Shown: positions 35,345-56,072, counted from the stretch's first letter. The stretch: 64,000 nt of DNA from Armatimonadota bacterium (GCA_041690135.1 JAWLHY010000002.1:96001-160000), one strand, 5' to 3'. Translations and numbers: made by a program. The notes: generated by a model not told the origin, from the sequence alone.

Positions 35345-35511
35345 AGTAGTTCACGAAGGCTTACGCCCGGGTACTCATCGAGTGAGTGCGGGTGCGGATT
35401 TCAATCAGCCAGTCAGGGGTTTTCAACTCGTGGAGCGCAGGAGTCCGCGCAGGTTTACGCCCCGAGGGGGTGCGGACTTTGCTCGGCCAGCCCCGGATTT
35501 CAATCCGGGGA
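35345..35511. repeat. REP-like hairpin cluster containing two micro-insertions
   Basis: CCCCGGATTTCAATCCGGGG and GTCCGC-GCAG/GCGGAC hairpins; shares motifs with 41031, 44441 and 55697. Confidence 0.75.
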
Positions 35512-42287: not shown

Positions 42288-44303
42288 CTACTTCGCCTTT
42301 CCTGGCTGAAGGTGCTGCTCGAACCAGTCCAGGTTGGTGTTCATCACCTTGAGCAACATCTTGGGCTCGCTGGGGCCGTGGGCCTGGCGGGGGAGGACCA
42401 GCATGCGGACCGGAACGCCGCGTTTCTTGAGGGCCGTGTAGAGCTCGAAGCTCTGGGTGATCGGCACGCGGCGGTCCAGCTCCCCGTGCTGGATCAACGT
42501 GGGGGTCCTCACCTTCGCCGCATGAAAGAGGGGCGAGCGGTCCAGGTAGATCCGGGCGAGTTGGGGATCATCCCAGGGCCAGGCGCCGAAGTAGCCGAGG
42601 CGCTGGGTGGGGATATCGGTGGTGCCGGTCTGGCTCACCAGGTTGGAGACTCCGGCGCCCAGAGAAGCCGCCTTGAACCGGTCGGTCTGGGTAATGGTCC
42701 AGCCAGTGAGATAACCGCCGTAGCTCCAGCCCATAATCCCCAGGCGCTCGGGATCCGCGACCCCCTGCTTCACCAGGTGGTCGACGCCCGCCATCAGGTC
42801 GCGGTAGTCGGCGCCGCCCCAGTCCCGGTAGTTCTGGTCCTGGAACTTCGCGCCGTACCCGATGGAGCCGCGAGGATTGGGCTGCAGCACCGCGAAGCCG
42901 CGGGCCGCGAAGGCCGCCGTGGGGTAGAGGGTCGGCCGGGCGAGATACTGCTGGCTGAAGGCGCCGGCGGGACCGCCGTGGATTTGCAGCAGCAGCGGCA
43001 CCCGGGTTCCCGGTGTGTAGCCGGCCGGGTATGTGAGCAGTCCCTCGACCTCCCACTCGCCGTCCGATTTCCAGCGGACCACCTCCGTCTTCCCCATTGG
43101 GAGTTCCGGTAGGTGAGTGTTGGCGCGGGTAACCCGCCGCAGGCTGAAGGGTGCGGCGGGACTGAGGGCCGCTTCGGGCGCCTGGGTAGAGCCCTCCGAC
43201 ACGCAGCCGAACCATTTCCGGGAAGGGTCCAGGGTGACCCCGGAAAGATACTCGCCGCCCTCATTAACGGTCCGGATCGCCCCGGTCTCGACCGCCATCG
43301 CGTAGATGCGGACGAGGGTACCCCGGTGCTCCCAAAAGTAGAGCTCTTTTCCGTCCGCCGACCACCCGATCAGCGTGGGGCGGGAGTCGGGGGTCTCGGG
43401 TAAGGTGCGAGGCGCGCCGCCTCCGACCGGGAAGAGCTGCAGGCGGCTCCGCTGCGTGTAGCGGGGCGGCTCCCCACTGGCGACCAGCGCGATCCACTTT
43501 CCATCGGGCGAATACCGGGCTTCTGCTTCCACCACTGGGGTGGCGGCTATGTCGCGGAACACACCGGTCTCCACCTCCACCGCCACCACATCCGAGCTCC
43601 AGCCATCGTCCGGGCGGGGCGTGGGAGTGCGGGTGAAGACAATGGTCTTGCCGTCAGGCGACCAGTCGAGCTGCGGCCCCACGTTGAACTCCGCCGGGGT
43701 GAGCGGTCGAGCTTCCCTTTTGCCGTCCGCTCCCGGCGCCAACGAGAGCACGTAAAGGCGGTTCTGAGCGACCTCTTCACCCACCCAGTAGGCATCGTCC
43801 TTCTCCCGGATCGCCTTCAGCCGTTCCTCGGAAGCCGCTTCCGGCGACGTGTAGGCGATGCGTGTGCCATCGGGCGACCAGGCATAGGCGGCGACCCCGC
43901 CGGGCACCTCCGTGAGGCGCTCCGAGGGCTTGCCGTCCAAACGGGAGAGAAAGAGCTGGCGGGCGTAGATGAAGGCCAGACCCGAGCCATCCGGCGCCCA
44001 CTGCGGATCGGAAGCGGAGCGCTCCGGCCGGGTGAGCGGCCGGATCTTTTCTCCGTCGGCACCCGACAGGAAGATCCGGGTGATGTTCTCGCTGCGCTCG
44101 GGCGTCATCACCGCCTCTGTGACGGTGTAGGCGACCTGCTGCCCATCCGGCGAGGGCCGCACGCTGCCGAGGCGCCGGACCTTCATCATCAATTCCGGCG
44201 TCCACGCCGTGGGCGCCGCCGCCTGGGACTGGACACCCACCGGCGCACAGAAAGCCCCGGCGAGGGTGAAAAGCGTTATGAGAGAGCGGGAAGGATGGGT
44301 CAT
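42288..44303 (-). CDS. S9 family peptidase (acylaminoacyl/dipeptidyl)
   Basis: PD40 repeats, IHGGP, GWSYGG, HGELDRRVP, catalytic His; signal peptide. Confidence 0.93.
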   Translation of the reverse strand: MTHPSRSLITLFTLAGAFCAPVGVQSQAAAPTAWTPELMMKVRRLGSVRPSPDGQQVAYTVTEAVMTPERSENITRIFLSGADGEKIRPLTRPERSASDPQWAPDGSGLAFIYARQLFLSRLDGKPSERLTEVPGGVAAYAWSPDGTRIAYTSPEAASEERLKAIREKDDAYWVGEEVAQNRLYVLSLAPGADGKREARPLTPAEFNVGPQLDWSPDGKTIVFTRTPTPRPDDGWSSDVVAVEVETGVFRDIAATPVVEAEARYSPDGKWIALVASGEPPRYTQRSRLQLFPVGGGAPRTLPETPDSRPTLIGWSADGKELYFWEHRGTLVRIYAMAVETGAIRTVNEGGEYLSGVTLDPSRKWFGCVSEGSTQAPEAALSPAAPFSLRRVTRANTHLPELPMGKTEVVRWKSDGEWEVEGLLTYPAGYTPGTRVPLLLQIHGGPAGAFSQQYLARPTLYPTAAFAARGFAVLQPNPRGSIGYGAKFQDQNYRDWGGADYRDLMAGVDHLVKQGVADPERLGIMGWSYGGYLTGWTITQTDRFKAASLGAGVSNLVSQTGTTDIPTQRLGYFGAWPWDDPQLARIYLDRSPLFHAAKVRTPTLIQHGELDRRVPITQSFELYTALKKRGVPVRMLVLPRQAHGPSEPKMLLKVMNTNLDWFEQHLQPGKAK

Positions 44304-44440
44304 GGTGATTGTGAAGCGATGGGCCGGGCATTACCGCCATTACGCCGGGAGAAGGGAAAGGCTTAGTGAAAATACGGTAAGGTACTCGATGGTGTTCGAC
44401 CCTGGCTGATGAGAATCGGGTCGTCCCGAATCCGTCTTTG

Positions 44441-44762
44441 CGTGGGGCTGAACCCGCGCTCCGGAACGGCACCGTCACCGCACCCCCTCGGGGCGTACCG
44501 TGCATCCGGACTCTCGCAGGGCTGAACCCCTGCGCTTCGGAACCGCACTGTGCCCGCACCCCCTCGGGGCGTAAACCTCCGCGGGCACATCTTACGCTCA
44601 TAGTTCACAGCCAGTTCCAGATGCTCGCTGACGCATTCTAACCTGCACCTGGATTACGGCCGCCGGACGGGGTACGCGCCGGGCGCCCACGGAGGTGGGC
44701 AGCGTGCATTTCCAAAGCCCGGCCGTTCAGGGCCGGGGATGGTTCCTCGCCCGTTCAGGGGC
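44441..44762. repeat. Composite REP-like element, copy 1
   Basis: CGCAGGGCTGAACCCCTGCG hairpins; GGGCAGCGTGCATTTCCAAAGCCCG block shared with 55697-56025. Confidence 0.8.
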
Positions 44763-46188
44763 GGGAAGGATTCCGCAGGCGGATCGCCTCGGAATACAGG
44801 TCGGCGTACAGGGCAGCCGAGCGGTCCCACGAGAAGTCGCTGCGCATGCCGTTTTGCTGGAGAGCGTGCCACTGGTCGGGGTGGCGGTACACGGCCAGGG
44901 CACGGCCGACGGCGGCGCGCAGGGCCTCTTCCCGGTACTCCCAGAACACGAACCCGGTGCGCGGGTCGCCGGGGAGGCCCTCTTCCACCGTATCCGCCAG
45001 GCCGCCGGTGGCGCGGACCACGGGAACCGTGCCGTAGCGCATCGCCATCATCTGGCTAAGACCGCAGGGCTCGAAGCGGGAGGGCATCAGGAAGAGGTCG
45101 CAGCCGGCGTAGATCCGCTGCGCCAGGGCCGCGTCGAAGGTGAGCCACGCGCGCAGGCGGTCCGGGTAGCGGTGCTGGAGCTGGTTGAGCAGGTGGTGAT
45201 ACTGCGGTTGCCCCGTGCCGAGGACGACCACCTGGAGCGGGTGCTCCTGGAGCAGGGTTTCCGCCGCTGCGGCAAAGAGGTCGAAGCCCTTCTGATCCAC
45301 CAGGCGGCCCACCATCCCGAGCAGGGGAATCTCGGGGTCCGGGGCGAAGCCGGCTTCCTGCTGGAGCGCCTCCTTGCAGAGGCGCTTTCCGCGCAGGTCC
45401 TCCGCGCTAAACCGGGCGGGCAGGTGGGGATCGGTGGTGGGGTCGTAAGTGGCCAGGTCGAGACCATTCAGCACGCCGTGAAGCCGGTCCTGCCGGGTGC
45501 GGAGCTGCGCGTCCATCCCTTCACCATACTCCGGGGTGAGGATCTCTCGGGCGTAGGTGGGGCTGACCGTGGTGATCAGGTCGGCGGTCCCGGCGCCGAG
45601 GGCGAGCAGGTTGACCCAGGGCTCGTGCACCCAGTGTGGCAGGAGACCCGCGGCGCCGTCCAGGCGGGCCCGGTCCGCCCAGCCCTGGTAGGCGAGGTTA
45701 TGGATCGTGAGCACGCTCGCGGCATCGAGGTAGAAAGAGCCGGCGCGACCTCCCTTGAGCATGGCGGGTGCCACGGCGGTGTGCCAGTCGTGGGCGTGGA
45801 CCACCTCCGCCTGCCAGCCCAGCGCCTCCATCCCGGCGAAGGCCCCGGCCGTGAAGAGCAGAAAGCGCCGCTGCTCGTCCGGCTGGTCGTACATGGTGGG
45901 GCGGTTGCCGAACAGCCAGGGAATCTCCACGAAGTAAACCGGCACCCCGTCCCGCTCCGTCCGCCGGAGGGAGGCCGCGATCACCTCGTGCCCGGCGGGG
46001 TAACGGTAGGAAGGCAGGACCGTCTCCAGACCCCACTGCTCCGGGTCGATCTGGCCATACCGGGGCATTACCACACGCACGTCATGCCCCAGCCGCCGGA
46101 GGGCCGCCGGGAGGGCGCCGGCCACGTCGGCGAGCCCCCCGGCCTTCGCAAACGGCGCCACTTCCGCCGCCAGGAAGAGCACCCTCAT
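44755..46188 (-). CDS. glgA: Glycogen synthase
   Basis: KAGGLADV, HAHDWH, TIHNLAYQG, PSRFEPCGLSQM, TGGLADTV. Confidence 0.97.
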   Translation of the reverse strand: MRVLFLAAEVAPFAKAGGLADVAGALPAALRRLGHDVRVVMPRYGQIDPEQWGLETVLPSYRYPAGHEVIAASLRRTERDGVPVYFVEIPWLFGNRPTMYDQPDEQRRFLLFTAGAFAGMEALGWQAEVVHAHDWHTAVAPAMLKGGRAGSFYLDAASVLTIHNLAYQGWADRARLDGAAGLLPHWVHEPWVNLLALGAGTADLITTVSPTYAREILTPEYGEGMDAQLRTRQDRLHGVLNGLDLATYDPTTDPHLPARFSAEDLRGKRLCKEALQQEAGFAPDPEIPLLGMVGRLVDQKGFDLFAAAAETLLQEHPLQVVVLGTGQPQYHHLLNQLQHRYPDRLRAWLTFDAALAQRIYAGCDLFLMPSRFEPCGLSQMMAMRYGTVPVVRATGGLADTVEEGLPGDPRTGFVFWEYREEALRAAVGRALAVYRHPDQWHALQQNGMRSDFSWDRSAALYADLYSEAIRLRNPSRP

Positions 46189-47450
46189 GCTTCGCACCGC
46201 GGGACGCACGCTCCACTGGGAATCTCGCGGTCCCAGTAGTCATCTGCGTTAACGCGCGACTCCACCCGAACGTTGCGACCTAACCGCACTCCCTGGGGGA
46301 TCTTGGCGTCCTTGCCGGCGATTGTGATGCCGCTGTAGAGGTTCCGCGGTTCCGCCACGTTGGGCGTCTTGTCGTCGCCCCAGCCGACGACCGCCTCCCG
46401 CTGCACCTCCACGCGCTTGTCCAGGATGGAGCAGTCGACCACGGCCCCGGCACGGATCACGGAATCGTTCATGATAATGGAATCGCGCACCACAGCCCCC
46501 GGCTCCACAATCACGCCCGGCGAGAGAATGGAGTTGGTCACCTCGCCGGAGATCACGCAGCCGTTTGAAAGCATGGCCCGGGAGATCTCGGCCCCCGAGA
46601 GCACCTTCACCGGCGGCCGCTCCTCGCTCAGGGTGTGTATCCGCCAGCCCTCGTCGTTCAGGTCCAGCTCGGGCCGGTCTTCCAGCAACTCCATATTGGT
46701 CTGCCAGTAGGCCGGGATGGTGCCGACGTCCACCCAGTAGCCGCTGAACGGGTAGGCGTACACGTTCGCCTCCTGGACCATGGCGGGGATGACGTTCTTC
46801 CCGAAGTCGTGGTCCGAGTCTTCCCGGCGGGCGTCTTCCTCCAGCATCTCGATGAGATAGTCCGTGTTGAAGACGTAGATGCCCATCGAGGCGAGGGTAC
46901 CCTGGAATTCGCGAGGCTTCTCGTAGAACTCCACGATCCGGTTCTGGGAATCGGTCTTCATGATTCCGAACCGGTGGGCCTCCTCGGCCGGCACCTCGCG
47001 GACGGCGACGGTGAGGTCCGCCCCCGTGTCCCAGTGCTGCCGGAGCATGCGGCGGTAGTCCTGCTTGTAGATGTGATCGCCGGAGAGCACCAGCAACGTG
47101 TCGCACCGCTCGGAGCGGATGAAATTGCGGTTCTGGTAGAGCGCGTCCGCGGTACCCCGGTACCAGTCCTGATCGCCCCGGCCGCGGTACGGCTGCCAGA
47201 TGCGCGCGCCGCCCCGGTTGCGGTCGAGGTCCCAGGGGCGTCCGGTCCCGATATGCTCGATAAGCGAGTGCGGCCGGTACTGGGTGAGCACGGCGATGTT
47301 GAAGAGATCGGAGTTGGCGCAGTTCGACAGCACGAAGTCGATGATCCGGTACTTGCCGGCAAACGGCATCGCCGGCTTGGCGCGCTTCTCGGCCAGGATG
47401 CTGAGGCGGCTGCCCTCGCCCCCCGCCAGGATCACGGTGAAGACCTTCAT
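46185..47450 (-). CDS. glgC: Glucose-1-phosphate adenylyltransferase
   Basis: LAGGEGSRL, RAKPAMPFAGKYRIIDF, GTADA, SMGIYVF, DFGKNVIP, YWVDVGT. Confidence 0.97.
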   Translation of the reverse strand: MKVFTVILAGGEGSRLSILAEKRAKPAMPFAGKYRIIDFVLSNCANSDLFNIAVLTQYRPHSLIEHIGTGRPWDLDRNRGGARIWQPYRGRGDQDWYRGTADALYQNRNFIRSERCDTLLVLSGDHIYKQDYRRMLRQHWDTGADLTVAVREVPAEEAHRFGIMKTDSQNRIVEFYEKPREFQGTLASMGIYVFNTDYLIEMLEEDARREDSDHDFGKNVIPAMVQEANVYAYPFSGYWVDVGTIPAYWQTNMELLEDRPELDLNDEGWRIHTLSEERPPVKVLSGAEISRAMLSNGCVISGEVTNSILSPGVIVEPGAVVRDSIIMNDSVIRAGAVVDCSILDKRVEVQREAVVGWGDDKTPNVAEPRNLYSGITIAGKDAKIPQGVRLGRNVRVESRVNADDYWDREIPSGACVPRCEA

Positions 47451-55674: not shown

Positions 55675-55696
55675 AAGGAACACCGGGCGCCTCCTT

Positions 55697-56025
55697 GCGC
55701 AGGGCTAAACCCCTGCGCACCGTCCCCGCACCGTCCCGGCACCCCACACCCGCGCGCGGGTACCCGGGCGTAAACCTCCGCGGGCACGCCGTGCACCCGG
55801 TCCCGCGCAGGGCTAAACCCCTGCGCTCCGGTACCGCACCGTCCCCGCCTCCGCAGGCACGCATCACGCGCATTTGTCTTGGCGAGTTCCGGACGTTTGC
55901 TGACGCATACCCGGTTGCACAGGGATCGCGGTAGCAGTACTGGGCGAAAACCGGGCGCCCACGGAGGTTTACGCCCCGAGGGGGTGTGGGCAGCGTGCAT
56001 TTCCAAAGCCCGCCCGTTCAGGGGC
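55697..56025. repeat. Composite REP-like element, copy 2
   Basis: Two CGCAGGGCTAAACCCCTGCG hairpins; blocks shared with 44441-44762. Confidence 0.8.
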
Positions 56026-56072
56026 GGCGCGGGGTGGCGCACCGCATACGCGGTTCATCCACCCGCGCATTG

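Follow-up and report, generated by a model that had tools for sequence, protein, structure and literature searches.

The 64,000-nucleotide stretch analysed here, referred to as the window throughout, corresponds to C2:96001-160000 of a 9.10-Mb genome that consists of 25 contigs and has a GC content of 65% (GCA_041690135.1). Among the short repeat elements of this soil-type bacterium, a 19-base hairpin-forming unit is either present or absent at one exact position. The unit has the sequence GTTTACGCCCCGAGGGGGT and was found in the window in three exact copies and one variant (Table 1), whereas 0.05 matches are expected by chance and none of 100 shuffles reached the observed number of four. All three exact copies are intergenic and lie between long ORFs. 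The composite repeat array that contains the minus-strand copy is placed between the ORFs 42288-44303 (-) and 44755-46209 (-).

Table 1. Positions of the 19-nt unit, its host hairpins, empty sites and related features in the window
Feature	Position	Strand	Description
19-nt unit	55967..55985	+	6-nt head GTTTAC followed by hairpin GCCCC-GAG-GGGGT
Host hairpin of the 55967 unit	55957-55991	+	GCCCAC GGAG / unit / GTGGGC; family B REP
Exact unit copy	35453..35471	+	Host hairpin 35443-35477, GTCCGC GCAG / unit / GCGGAC; family D REP
Exact unit copy	44558..44576	-	Host hairpin 44552-44586, minus strand GCCCGC GGAG / unit / GCGGGC; family C REP
Degenerate unit copy	44482..44500	-	CGGTAC head, 3 mismatches; host loop and 5' arm unrecognisable
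Empty site	44685..44700	+	GCCCAC GGAG GTGGGC, junction 44694/44695; paralogue of filled 55957-55991
Empty site	55843..55858	-	GCCTGC GGAG GCGGGG, imperfect stem, junction 55849/55848; paralogue of filled 44552-44586
35-nt unit	55741..55775	-	Ends as in the 19-nt unit (GTTTACGCCC...GGGGT), after GCCCGC GGAG; apex is a GGGTACCC-type hairpin
35-nt unit	35359..35393	+	Head GCTTAC, after GAAG; about 60 nt upstream of the 35453 copy
Composite REP array	44430..44770	.	Two inverted family C units, spacer, family B unit
Second composite REP array	55690..56040	.	77% identical to 44430..44770; filled/empty states opposite

An initial annotation of this DNA had placed an identical 19-mer at three positions, and all three were matched exactly. 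Direct reading likewise agreed with its statement that in each case a four-nucleotide GNAG loop precedes the copy and the 3' arm of the 6-bp host hairpin follows it, and the two empty junctions that it had given proved to be correct. In the pairwise alignment of the two composite arrays (77% identity), the alternative states appear as two reciprocal gaps of 19 nt, and at a third site a degenerate copy of the unit in one array corresponds to a 35-nt relative in the other. The claimed lack of a target duplication was also borne out at the window sites, apart from an ambiguity of 1-2 nt at the junction. As the unit starts with G and is itself followed by G, the join can slide by 1 nt, and by 2 nt where the arm starts with GT (GT...GT). 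In a soil metagenome run, one contig of depth 2 joins position 44588 of the window to position 44718 with 16 other letters in between, and this joint may stem from a further copy of the repeat, in this organism or in one related to it.

Across the genome, the 19-mer has 39 exact copies and 110 copies when up to three mismatches are allowed (39, 22, 26 and 23 copies with zero, one, two and three mismatches, respectively), and the sites at which the junction is a single bond number approximately 60 in the filled and 180 in the empty state. In an excision test, n nucleotides were cut out in silico at each copy, the joined 60-mer was compared with the genome by BLAST and an ungapped paralogue across the joint was sought. 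Excision of exactly 19 nt yielded at least one empty paralogue for 81 of the 110 copies (786 matches), as opposed to 6, 10, 19, 16, 16 and 19 copies (8-58 matches) upon excision of 16, 17, 18, 20, 21 and 22 nt. When the excised 19 nt were shifted by -4 to +4, 55-84 copies retained a paralogue, so that this control, unlike the length control, did not discriminate; its weakness arises because BLAST tolerates mismatches at the joint. In host units found via their 3' flank, the insert lengths at the site fall into classes of 0, 18-20, 33-35 and 44-49 nt, and no truncated or partial cores were observed among the classified matches of the flank searches. A hairpin scan gave 232 matches at insert length 0 and 236 at length 19, which is a modest excess over the about 135-218 per insert length that arise by chance. 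Its exact boundaries mark the unit as a discrete indel of 19 nt.

The bases next to the 110 copies are strongly biased. A purine occupies position -4 in 97 copies, position -2 is A in 97 and position -1 is G in 87, and the base that follows the unit (+1) is G in 99; position -3 is unconstrained (G 55, A 24, C 20, T 11). Six hairpins of family D have a GACG loop, and all six are empty. These observations support RNAG^G as the target bond, in the sense of a strong preference. The tabulation of flanks that had been proposed in the initial annotation ended with precise junctions and a strong target preference.

Host repeats that carry the unit belong to at least eight families, and filled and empty paralogues were found in each family counted (Table 2). 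The hosts of families A-E are hairpins with 6-bp arms and a GNAG loop. In family F, which we take to be boxC-like, the unit follows an inner hairpin ending in GAGAG or GAGAA; in family G it breaks up hairpin-free tandem arrays of CGCAAAG, and in family H it intervenes between tag and hairpin of a classical GTAG REP. Most unit sites are GNAG loops of hairpins that flank the REP-associated Y1 transposase genes of the phylum. The earlier proposal that REP loops are the target therefore holds for the GNAG loops of families A-E but was too narrow, as the sites in families F, G and H lie outside loops. Because the hosts include non-loop as well as hairpin-free sites, it is the RNAG^G bond and not the loop that constitutes the constant feature.

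Table 2. Filled and empty sites in the host repeat families, counted from flank searches; the matches examined also include unclassified or chance matches
Host family	Filled	Empty	Matches examined
A	10	27	59
B	12	20	61
C	6	8	23
D	3	22	38
E	6	10	26
F1	5	15	27
F2	10	17	38
G	6	29	73
H	4	36	104

Family F comprises two repeat families, CTCTCCCGCAGCGTGGGAGAG-GGGG..GGGGTGAGGGC and CCCCCTTCTCTGCGTCGGAGAAG-GGGG..GGGGATGAGGT, with 27 and 38 anchor matches, respectively, and several kinds of insert occur at one and the same site (C3:752333, C1:934060 and C2:790195 are examples). Four near-copies of the unit at C11:1638, C11:6478, C12:283423 and C12:283691 have the heads GTTTAT and GCTTGT and are not preceded by AG. 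Their context reads ...CGACGACAAT / unit / AGCAAC... and represents a different, possibly coding repeat. GC skew along the contigs, which was inspected with regard to a replication-strand bias of the unit, changes sign irregularly.

The hairpin of the unit has a 5-bp stem and a 3-nt loop and is closed by a G.T pair in 90 of the 110 copies. Its head reads GTTTAC in 78 units and GCTTGC in 15. Within the head, positions 2 and 5 co-vary (T:A in 89, C:G in 18 and other combinations in 3 of the 110 copies), and positions 1 and 6 form a Watson-Crick pair in 97 of 110. The inner stem is nearly invariant and thus has little co-variation on offer. Both head alleles and a GCG loop allele are each present in several host families. 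When folded as DNA, filled hairpins are predicted to adopt a single extended structure of -10.2 to -14.6 kcal/mol, as compared to -7.3 kcal/mol for the empty form. In the predicted fold, the inner stem stacks on the 3' arm of the host and an 8-nt bulge formed by the loop and the start of the head is located on the 5' side.

Such a gain in predicted stability would also be in line with filled and empty hairpins being two selected functional versions of a terminator, an mRNA-stabilising or a protein-binding hairpin, with the unit itself being immobile. The intergenic position of the three window sites fits this reading, selection acting on a single strand is suggested by the closing G.T pair together with rare compensatory changes of the inner stem, and REP variants that differ in loop length and have self-complementary long loops coexist in other bacteria according to the section on such variants in PMC3733652. 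Nevertheless, we consider it improbable: selection leaves unexplained why an identical 19-mer is found in at least eight host contexts of a single genome, the unit in family H separates the GTAG tag from its hairpin and should thereby break the REP, and a search of the 64-kb window against Rfam returned no family match.

Units of 35 nt are found at the same site. They have the common head and tail, and a GGGTACCC-type hairpin replaces the apex; a 49-nt form exists as well. We infer that the 35- and 49-nt units are the same element with extra hairpins. A GGGTACCC-type hairpin was also encountered elsewhere. The gene at C1:749149-749739 encodes a REP-associated tyrosine transposase and is flanked by its own REP (GGAGTCCCGCC-loop-GGCGG), and in one REP copy downstream of this gene the loop is replaced by a 21-nt GGGTACCC-type hairpin. 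As this type of hairpin resides in the loop of another REP too, nesting is general in this genome.

The direction of change was addressed with 40 relatives from across the phylum, six of which belong to the same family, giving 41 genomes together with the own genome. The empty hairpin motif AG-YCSRC-GNAG-GYSGRC-TT has 51 matches in the own genome. With controls at 0-1, it is also present in three of the six same-family genomes (73, 15 and 6 matches) and in other families (115, 41, 28, 17, 13, 12 and 10 matches); at least one match occurs in 15 of the 40 relatives, and ten relatives have 6-115 matches. One of the empty matches listed for relative G010 shows the two-hairpin layout of family D. 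The 19-mer itself, searched with up to one mismatch, was found in none of the 40 relatives, and a 12-nt motif made of the junction and the head gave 76 matches here versus 0-3 per relative. The filled pattern, in which 12-50 nt separate loop and 3' arm, has 25 matches in the own genome, 23 of them GTTTAC-type (17 of the 19-nt kind and 6 larger). In the relatives, this pattern stays at the level of a reversed-pattern control, and no other loop insert rises above chance. Since the empty form is distributed phylum-wide and the filled form is confined to one of the 41 genomes, the empty form is, as judged from this distribution, ancestral in the A/D/E superfamily and the unit was gained in the own lineage. 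Filled copies stand on every common stem subtype (GCCGAC 5, GCCTGC 4 and GCCGGC 1 in family A; GTCGGC 5 and GTCCGC 1 in family E). The host repeat of families B and C has 28 matches here and a single match, with one mismatch, in the relatives, and polarity is thus settled for A/D/E only.

The reverse history, which the initial annotation had set against its own reading, holds that the filled form is ancestral and that empty hairpins arose by repeated slippage deletion of 19 nt. The hairpin within the unit and the flanking G...G (GT...GT in some hosts) could favour slippage, and the host repeat of families B and C is confined to the own genome. For families A, D and E, however, this history is contradicted by the relatives: their empty hairpin is found in 15 of 40 genomes with the filled form at control level, and the head motif does not exceed chance outside the own genome. 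A microhomology of 1-2 nt is, moreover, poor support for dozens of identical deletions, and we regard this explanation as highly improbable.

Scans of genome and metagenome contig collections for the 19-mer revealed no orthologous pair of a filled and an empty site in another strain; they matched one unrelated Clostridiales MAG (38% GC) and four unrelated single metagenome sequences. A soil sequencing run (6% of sampled words) gave scattered 151-nt contigs and no usable filled or empty allele. In the relatives G010 and G036, the empty GNAG hairpins are closely paired in inverted orientation with a spacing of 27 nt, a layout that resembles a REPIN doublet (for example G010:C9:6317/6344 and C10:10638/10665).

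Trees of the host units were constructed from about 115 nt of flanking sequence, to the exclusion of arms, loop and insert, and are weakly resolved. Changes of fill state on these trees numbered 7 for family A, 15 for B+C and 9 for D+E, against shuffle means of 9.0, 14.3 and 8.3, counts that are biased upwards because the trees are short and weakly resolved. Stem type served as a positive control and clustered in B+C (8 changes versus 13.7, 0 of 500 shuffles as low) and in D+E (10 versus 13.9, 2 of 500), and weakly so in family A (10 versus 12.5, 23 of 500). On the evidence of the flank trees, fill state clearly does not follow the descent of the host unit and is scattered with respect to host relatedness. 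Gene conversion within a family would be an alternative cause of this scatter. Host units of one family have 10 nt on the upstream side and 6-30 nt on the downstream side of the site in common, so that conversion between filled and empty units is plausible and would result in a random distribution on the trees.

In a wider sense, the unit might spread without any transposase, by template switching or short-patch gene conversion between hairpins, with AG/G and the stems as anchors. The microhomology of 1-2 nt at the junction accords with this, as does the lack of the unit in relatives that possess the same enzymes and empty hairpins. However, families F, G and H have only RNAG and G in common with families A-E, and exact joins would be needed repeatedly with almost no homology. 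Imprecise or partial products were not present among the classified matches, and a length of 19 nt is sharply preferred over neighbouring lengths. Taken together, we judge transposase-free spread to be rather unlikely. Among copies found via their flank, mismatches to the consensus amount to 25 in 627 sites for the core and 92 in 756 sites for the host flank. The approximately threefold lower divergence of the core counts in favour of repeated insertion, although constraint, and not youth, could account for it.

The genome contains nine matches to PF01797 (Y1_Tnp). An NCBIfam scan of six Y1 genes assigned three as IS200/IS605-type (C11:209599-210042, C1:627745-628236 and C2:54494-54973) and three as REP_Tyr_transpos, all above the cut-off, and two further long Y1 genes look like the REP-associated tyrosine transposase type from their sequence. 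None of the nine lies in the window, in line with the initial annotation, and the nearest Y1 gene is located 41 kb upstream of the window start. Inverted B/C REPs, one of them filled and one with the GCTTGC variant, border the Y1 gene at C11:209599-210042; the filled copy and the variant are positioned 180-320 nt upstream of the gene, both inside host REPs. Another Y1 gene, at C2:54494-54973, is flanked by inverted D REPs. No bare units flanking a Y1 gene were seen among the Y1 loci of this genome. An 11-mer repeat mask (at least 10 copies) laid over the surroundings of the Y1 genes was too lax at 65% GC and marked nearly everything.

Homologues of the C11 protein, with up to 49% identity, are encoded in 22 of the 40 relatives, and a search for a Y1 gene peculiar to the own genome yielded none. 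At G016:C553, G013:C41, G013:C45 and G010:C12, a homologous gene of this kind has the empty hairpin motif no more than 300 nt away. As GNAG hairpins flank Y1 genes here and in relatives alike, they very likely serve as recognition hairpins for the enzyme family to which the C11 protein belongs. Relatives with Y1 genes and empty hairpins that lack the unit indicate that the enzymes alone do not produce it. The co-occurrence with Y1 genes raised in the initial annotation stands for the own genome with its nine genes but does not extend to the relatives, where homologues are present in 22 of 40 and all are without the unit. The Y1/RAYT-like genes at C1:1172394, C9:13911, C23:415 and C14:177694 each appear to possess distinct flanking inverted repeats of their own. 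With apparently distinct repeats for each of these genes, the genome may hold at least seven separate REP-RAYT systems.

Given these findings, we propose that the 19-mer is a REP-like mini-module that was repeatedly inserted at RNAG^G, that Y1 enzymes acted in trans and that the 35- and 49-nt forms represent the same element, an account to which we assign an even chance of being correct. The putative module would consist of the 6-nt head (GTTTAC or the co-varying GCTTGC) and a 5-bp hairpin closed by G.T, and would have been inserted many separate times in the own lineage at RNAG^G within single-strand-prone repeat DNA. Cutting and joining would be performed in trans by at least one of the nine Y1 (HUH) enzymes, presumably on single-stranded DNA and without target duplication. 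Mobilisation by Y1/HUH enzymes is a plausible hypothesis, and the unit may rank among the smallest mobile pieces of DNA seen. A bolder version, which we advance tentatively and hold to be the less probable, would regard it as the smallest DNA transposon yet: a one-hairpin single-stranded element whose head acts as its own guide, which is excised and then pasted 3' of RNAG by Y1 and which can take up hairpins as cargo. If it were such a transposon, its favoured target would be the recognition hairpin of the REP-associated Y1 enzymes themselves, and nesting would provide a route by which REP/BIME hairpins grow and diversify.

With regard to a guide of the IS608 type, as mentioned in the initial annotation, TTAC predicts AA(A)G. 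The target would agree with this at -1 and -2 and, by a wobble pair, at -4, but the rule fails at -3, which is free. The RAYT rule would put the cut between head bases 1 and 2; this is allowed by the 1-nt ambiguity of the junction and would explain the co-variation of positions 1:6 and 2:5. For 2:5, such co-variation is the geometry that the RAYT model, as laid out in the relevant part of PMC3479197, gives to guide and cut site. We take the apparent fits to both rules as leads only. Two ends of the IS608 kind cannot come from one hairpin. A monomeric RAYT-like cut followed by strand transfer would be the better analogy.

IS1397, IS621 and ISPpu9/10 target REP hairpins, are 1-2 kb in size and have their own transposases of other families. 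The unit resembles them in that a REP hairpin is the specific insertion site; those elements, however, are full-length IS, and the unit has 19 nt. BIME/RIME mosaics consist of juxtaposed modules, with palindromic units and short motifs of variable kind in modular combination. Both there and here, different loop variants of a single REP family are found side by side, but nesting at a fixed bond and ancestral empty forms are not part of the description of such mosaics. We know of no defined insertion target for REPs. REPIN-RAYT systems were reportedly treated by Bertels and Rainey in 2011. The known mobile unit of REPs is a doublet of about 100 nt or more, in contrast to the single 19-nt hairpin found here, and in REP-RAYT systems the gene is flanked by its own REPs, whereas here the hosts and not the unit flank the Y1 genes.

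RAYT systems comprise single-copy Y1 HUH genes flanked by their own REPs, and ssDNA cleavage and strand transfer have been demonstrated in vitro (Messing et al., 2012, PMC3479197, in the sections concerned). The unit shares with REP/RAYT systems the non-coding, GC-rich, high-copy hairpins and a conserved guide-like sequence 5' of the hairpin foot. For the RAYT of E. coli, base pairing joins the two final guide bases to the two bases straddling the cut, as stated in the corresponding part of PMC3479197, and the enzyme cuts at a CT distant from the hairpin. In IS200/IS605 elements, the bases before the cut are paired with four bases that lie 5' of the hairpin foot, according to the guide sections of PMC3479197 and PMC3201880. 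Like IS608, as portrayed in those parts of He et al. (2011, PMC3201880) that deal with insertion and excision, the unit is associated with insertion 3' of a tetranucleotide, lack of a target duplication and a seamless empty form. It further agrees with IS200/IS605 in A as the third target base (TTAC, TCAA) and in a pre-cut base that is complementary to the final guide base (here G to C). IS608, however, has two different subterminal hairpins and two guide/cut-site pairs, with cuts 19 and 10 nt away from the hairpin feet, and the unit has one hairpin, directly next to which both of its junctions lie. When viewed as an IS200/IS605 miniature, it hence shows insertion 3' of a tetranucleotide without duplication and lacks distinct left and right hairpins.

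The closest precedent for the unit is provided by the nested REPs in the passage of Di Nocera et al. (2013, PMC3733652) devoted to them. GTAG-23 REPs of Thermomicrobium roseum are described there as "inserted within small palindromes", hundreds of unoccupied target palindromes (CCGSSCC n3-4 GGSSCGG) exist beside the occupied ones, and GTAG-15 of Anabaena variabilis and CGTC-1 of Halothiobacillus neapolitanus are also mentioned. The likeness lies in a tagged stem-loop inside a small palindrome, and the T. roseum genome is GC-rich, too. That passage runs to a few lines, calls the matter not investigated and contains no exact junction, target tetranucleotide, polarity or count of events. The units in it have a GTAG tag, whereas the unit here has GTTTAC or GCTTGC, is 19 nt long, also occupies targets that are not palindromic and has larger derivatives that share its ends. 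The same paper, in the respective passages, defines BIMEs, names REPs as targets of IS and divides REPs into two super-families by the tetranucleotide at the stem foot, GTAG and CGTC. When measured against the definition of a REP, the unit is a short GC-rich palindrome of high copy number, its 19 nt are at the lower edge of the range of about 20-40 bp and its head is neither GTAG nor CGTC. As a single hairpin it does not constitute a REPIN, a layout that is seen in the host B/C arrays. Apart from the nested REPs of PMC3733652, the literature passages covered, those of PMC3686654 among them, did not describe a comparable nested unit or a 19-nt unit that combines a defined bond and polarity with cargo-bearing derivatives. 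We file the unit as a hairpin repeat of the REP/RAYT type with nested insertion.

How REPs spread and diversify and how RAYTs act on cellular DNA are standing questions, for which this genome offers a natural experiment with a simple target motif, a phylum-wide ancestral empty state and nine candidate enzymes. If moved by Y1, the unit would be a minimal substrate of one hairpin and six bases for single-strand cut-and-paste and would provide a mechanism for nested, mosaic REPs; if not, it would be a clean case of site-specific, template-driven hairpin growth.

Related 19-nt units were observed in tandem arrays of the genome. Those with the heads CCCTGG, CTTTAG and CCTTGG followed by CCCCC-GAG-GGGGG (24, 13 and 5 copies, respectively) sit after CAAC in tandem arrays of the heptamer CTTCAAC, as at C1:1551432, C6:139429-139483 and C23:23905-23931. 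A third kind of unit combines ATTTAC or GTTTAC with [GC]CCCC-ACA-GGGG[GT] and resides in tandem ACCCGAAC arrays (31 copies with ATTTAC; examples at C1:266722, C1:485986-486013 and C2:219760). The array-borne related units keep the 2:5 pairing in the head, and the C-headed ones keep the 1:6 pairing as well. A rule relating head to target across all head types was rejected, since it fails for ATTTAC units after GAAC; in the similar 19-nt units of heptamer and octamer arrays, a guide-target rule is not always obeyed. Finally, a similar hexamer forms the loop of a G5/C5 hairpin in about 35 copies of the repeat CCGGGG-G(T/C)TT(G/A)C-ACCCCCGG...GCCCCTCCGGGGCT, for example at C2:1173487, C4:135348 and C1:619093.
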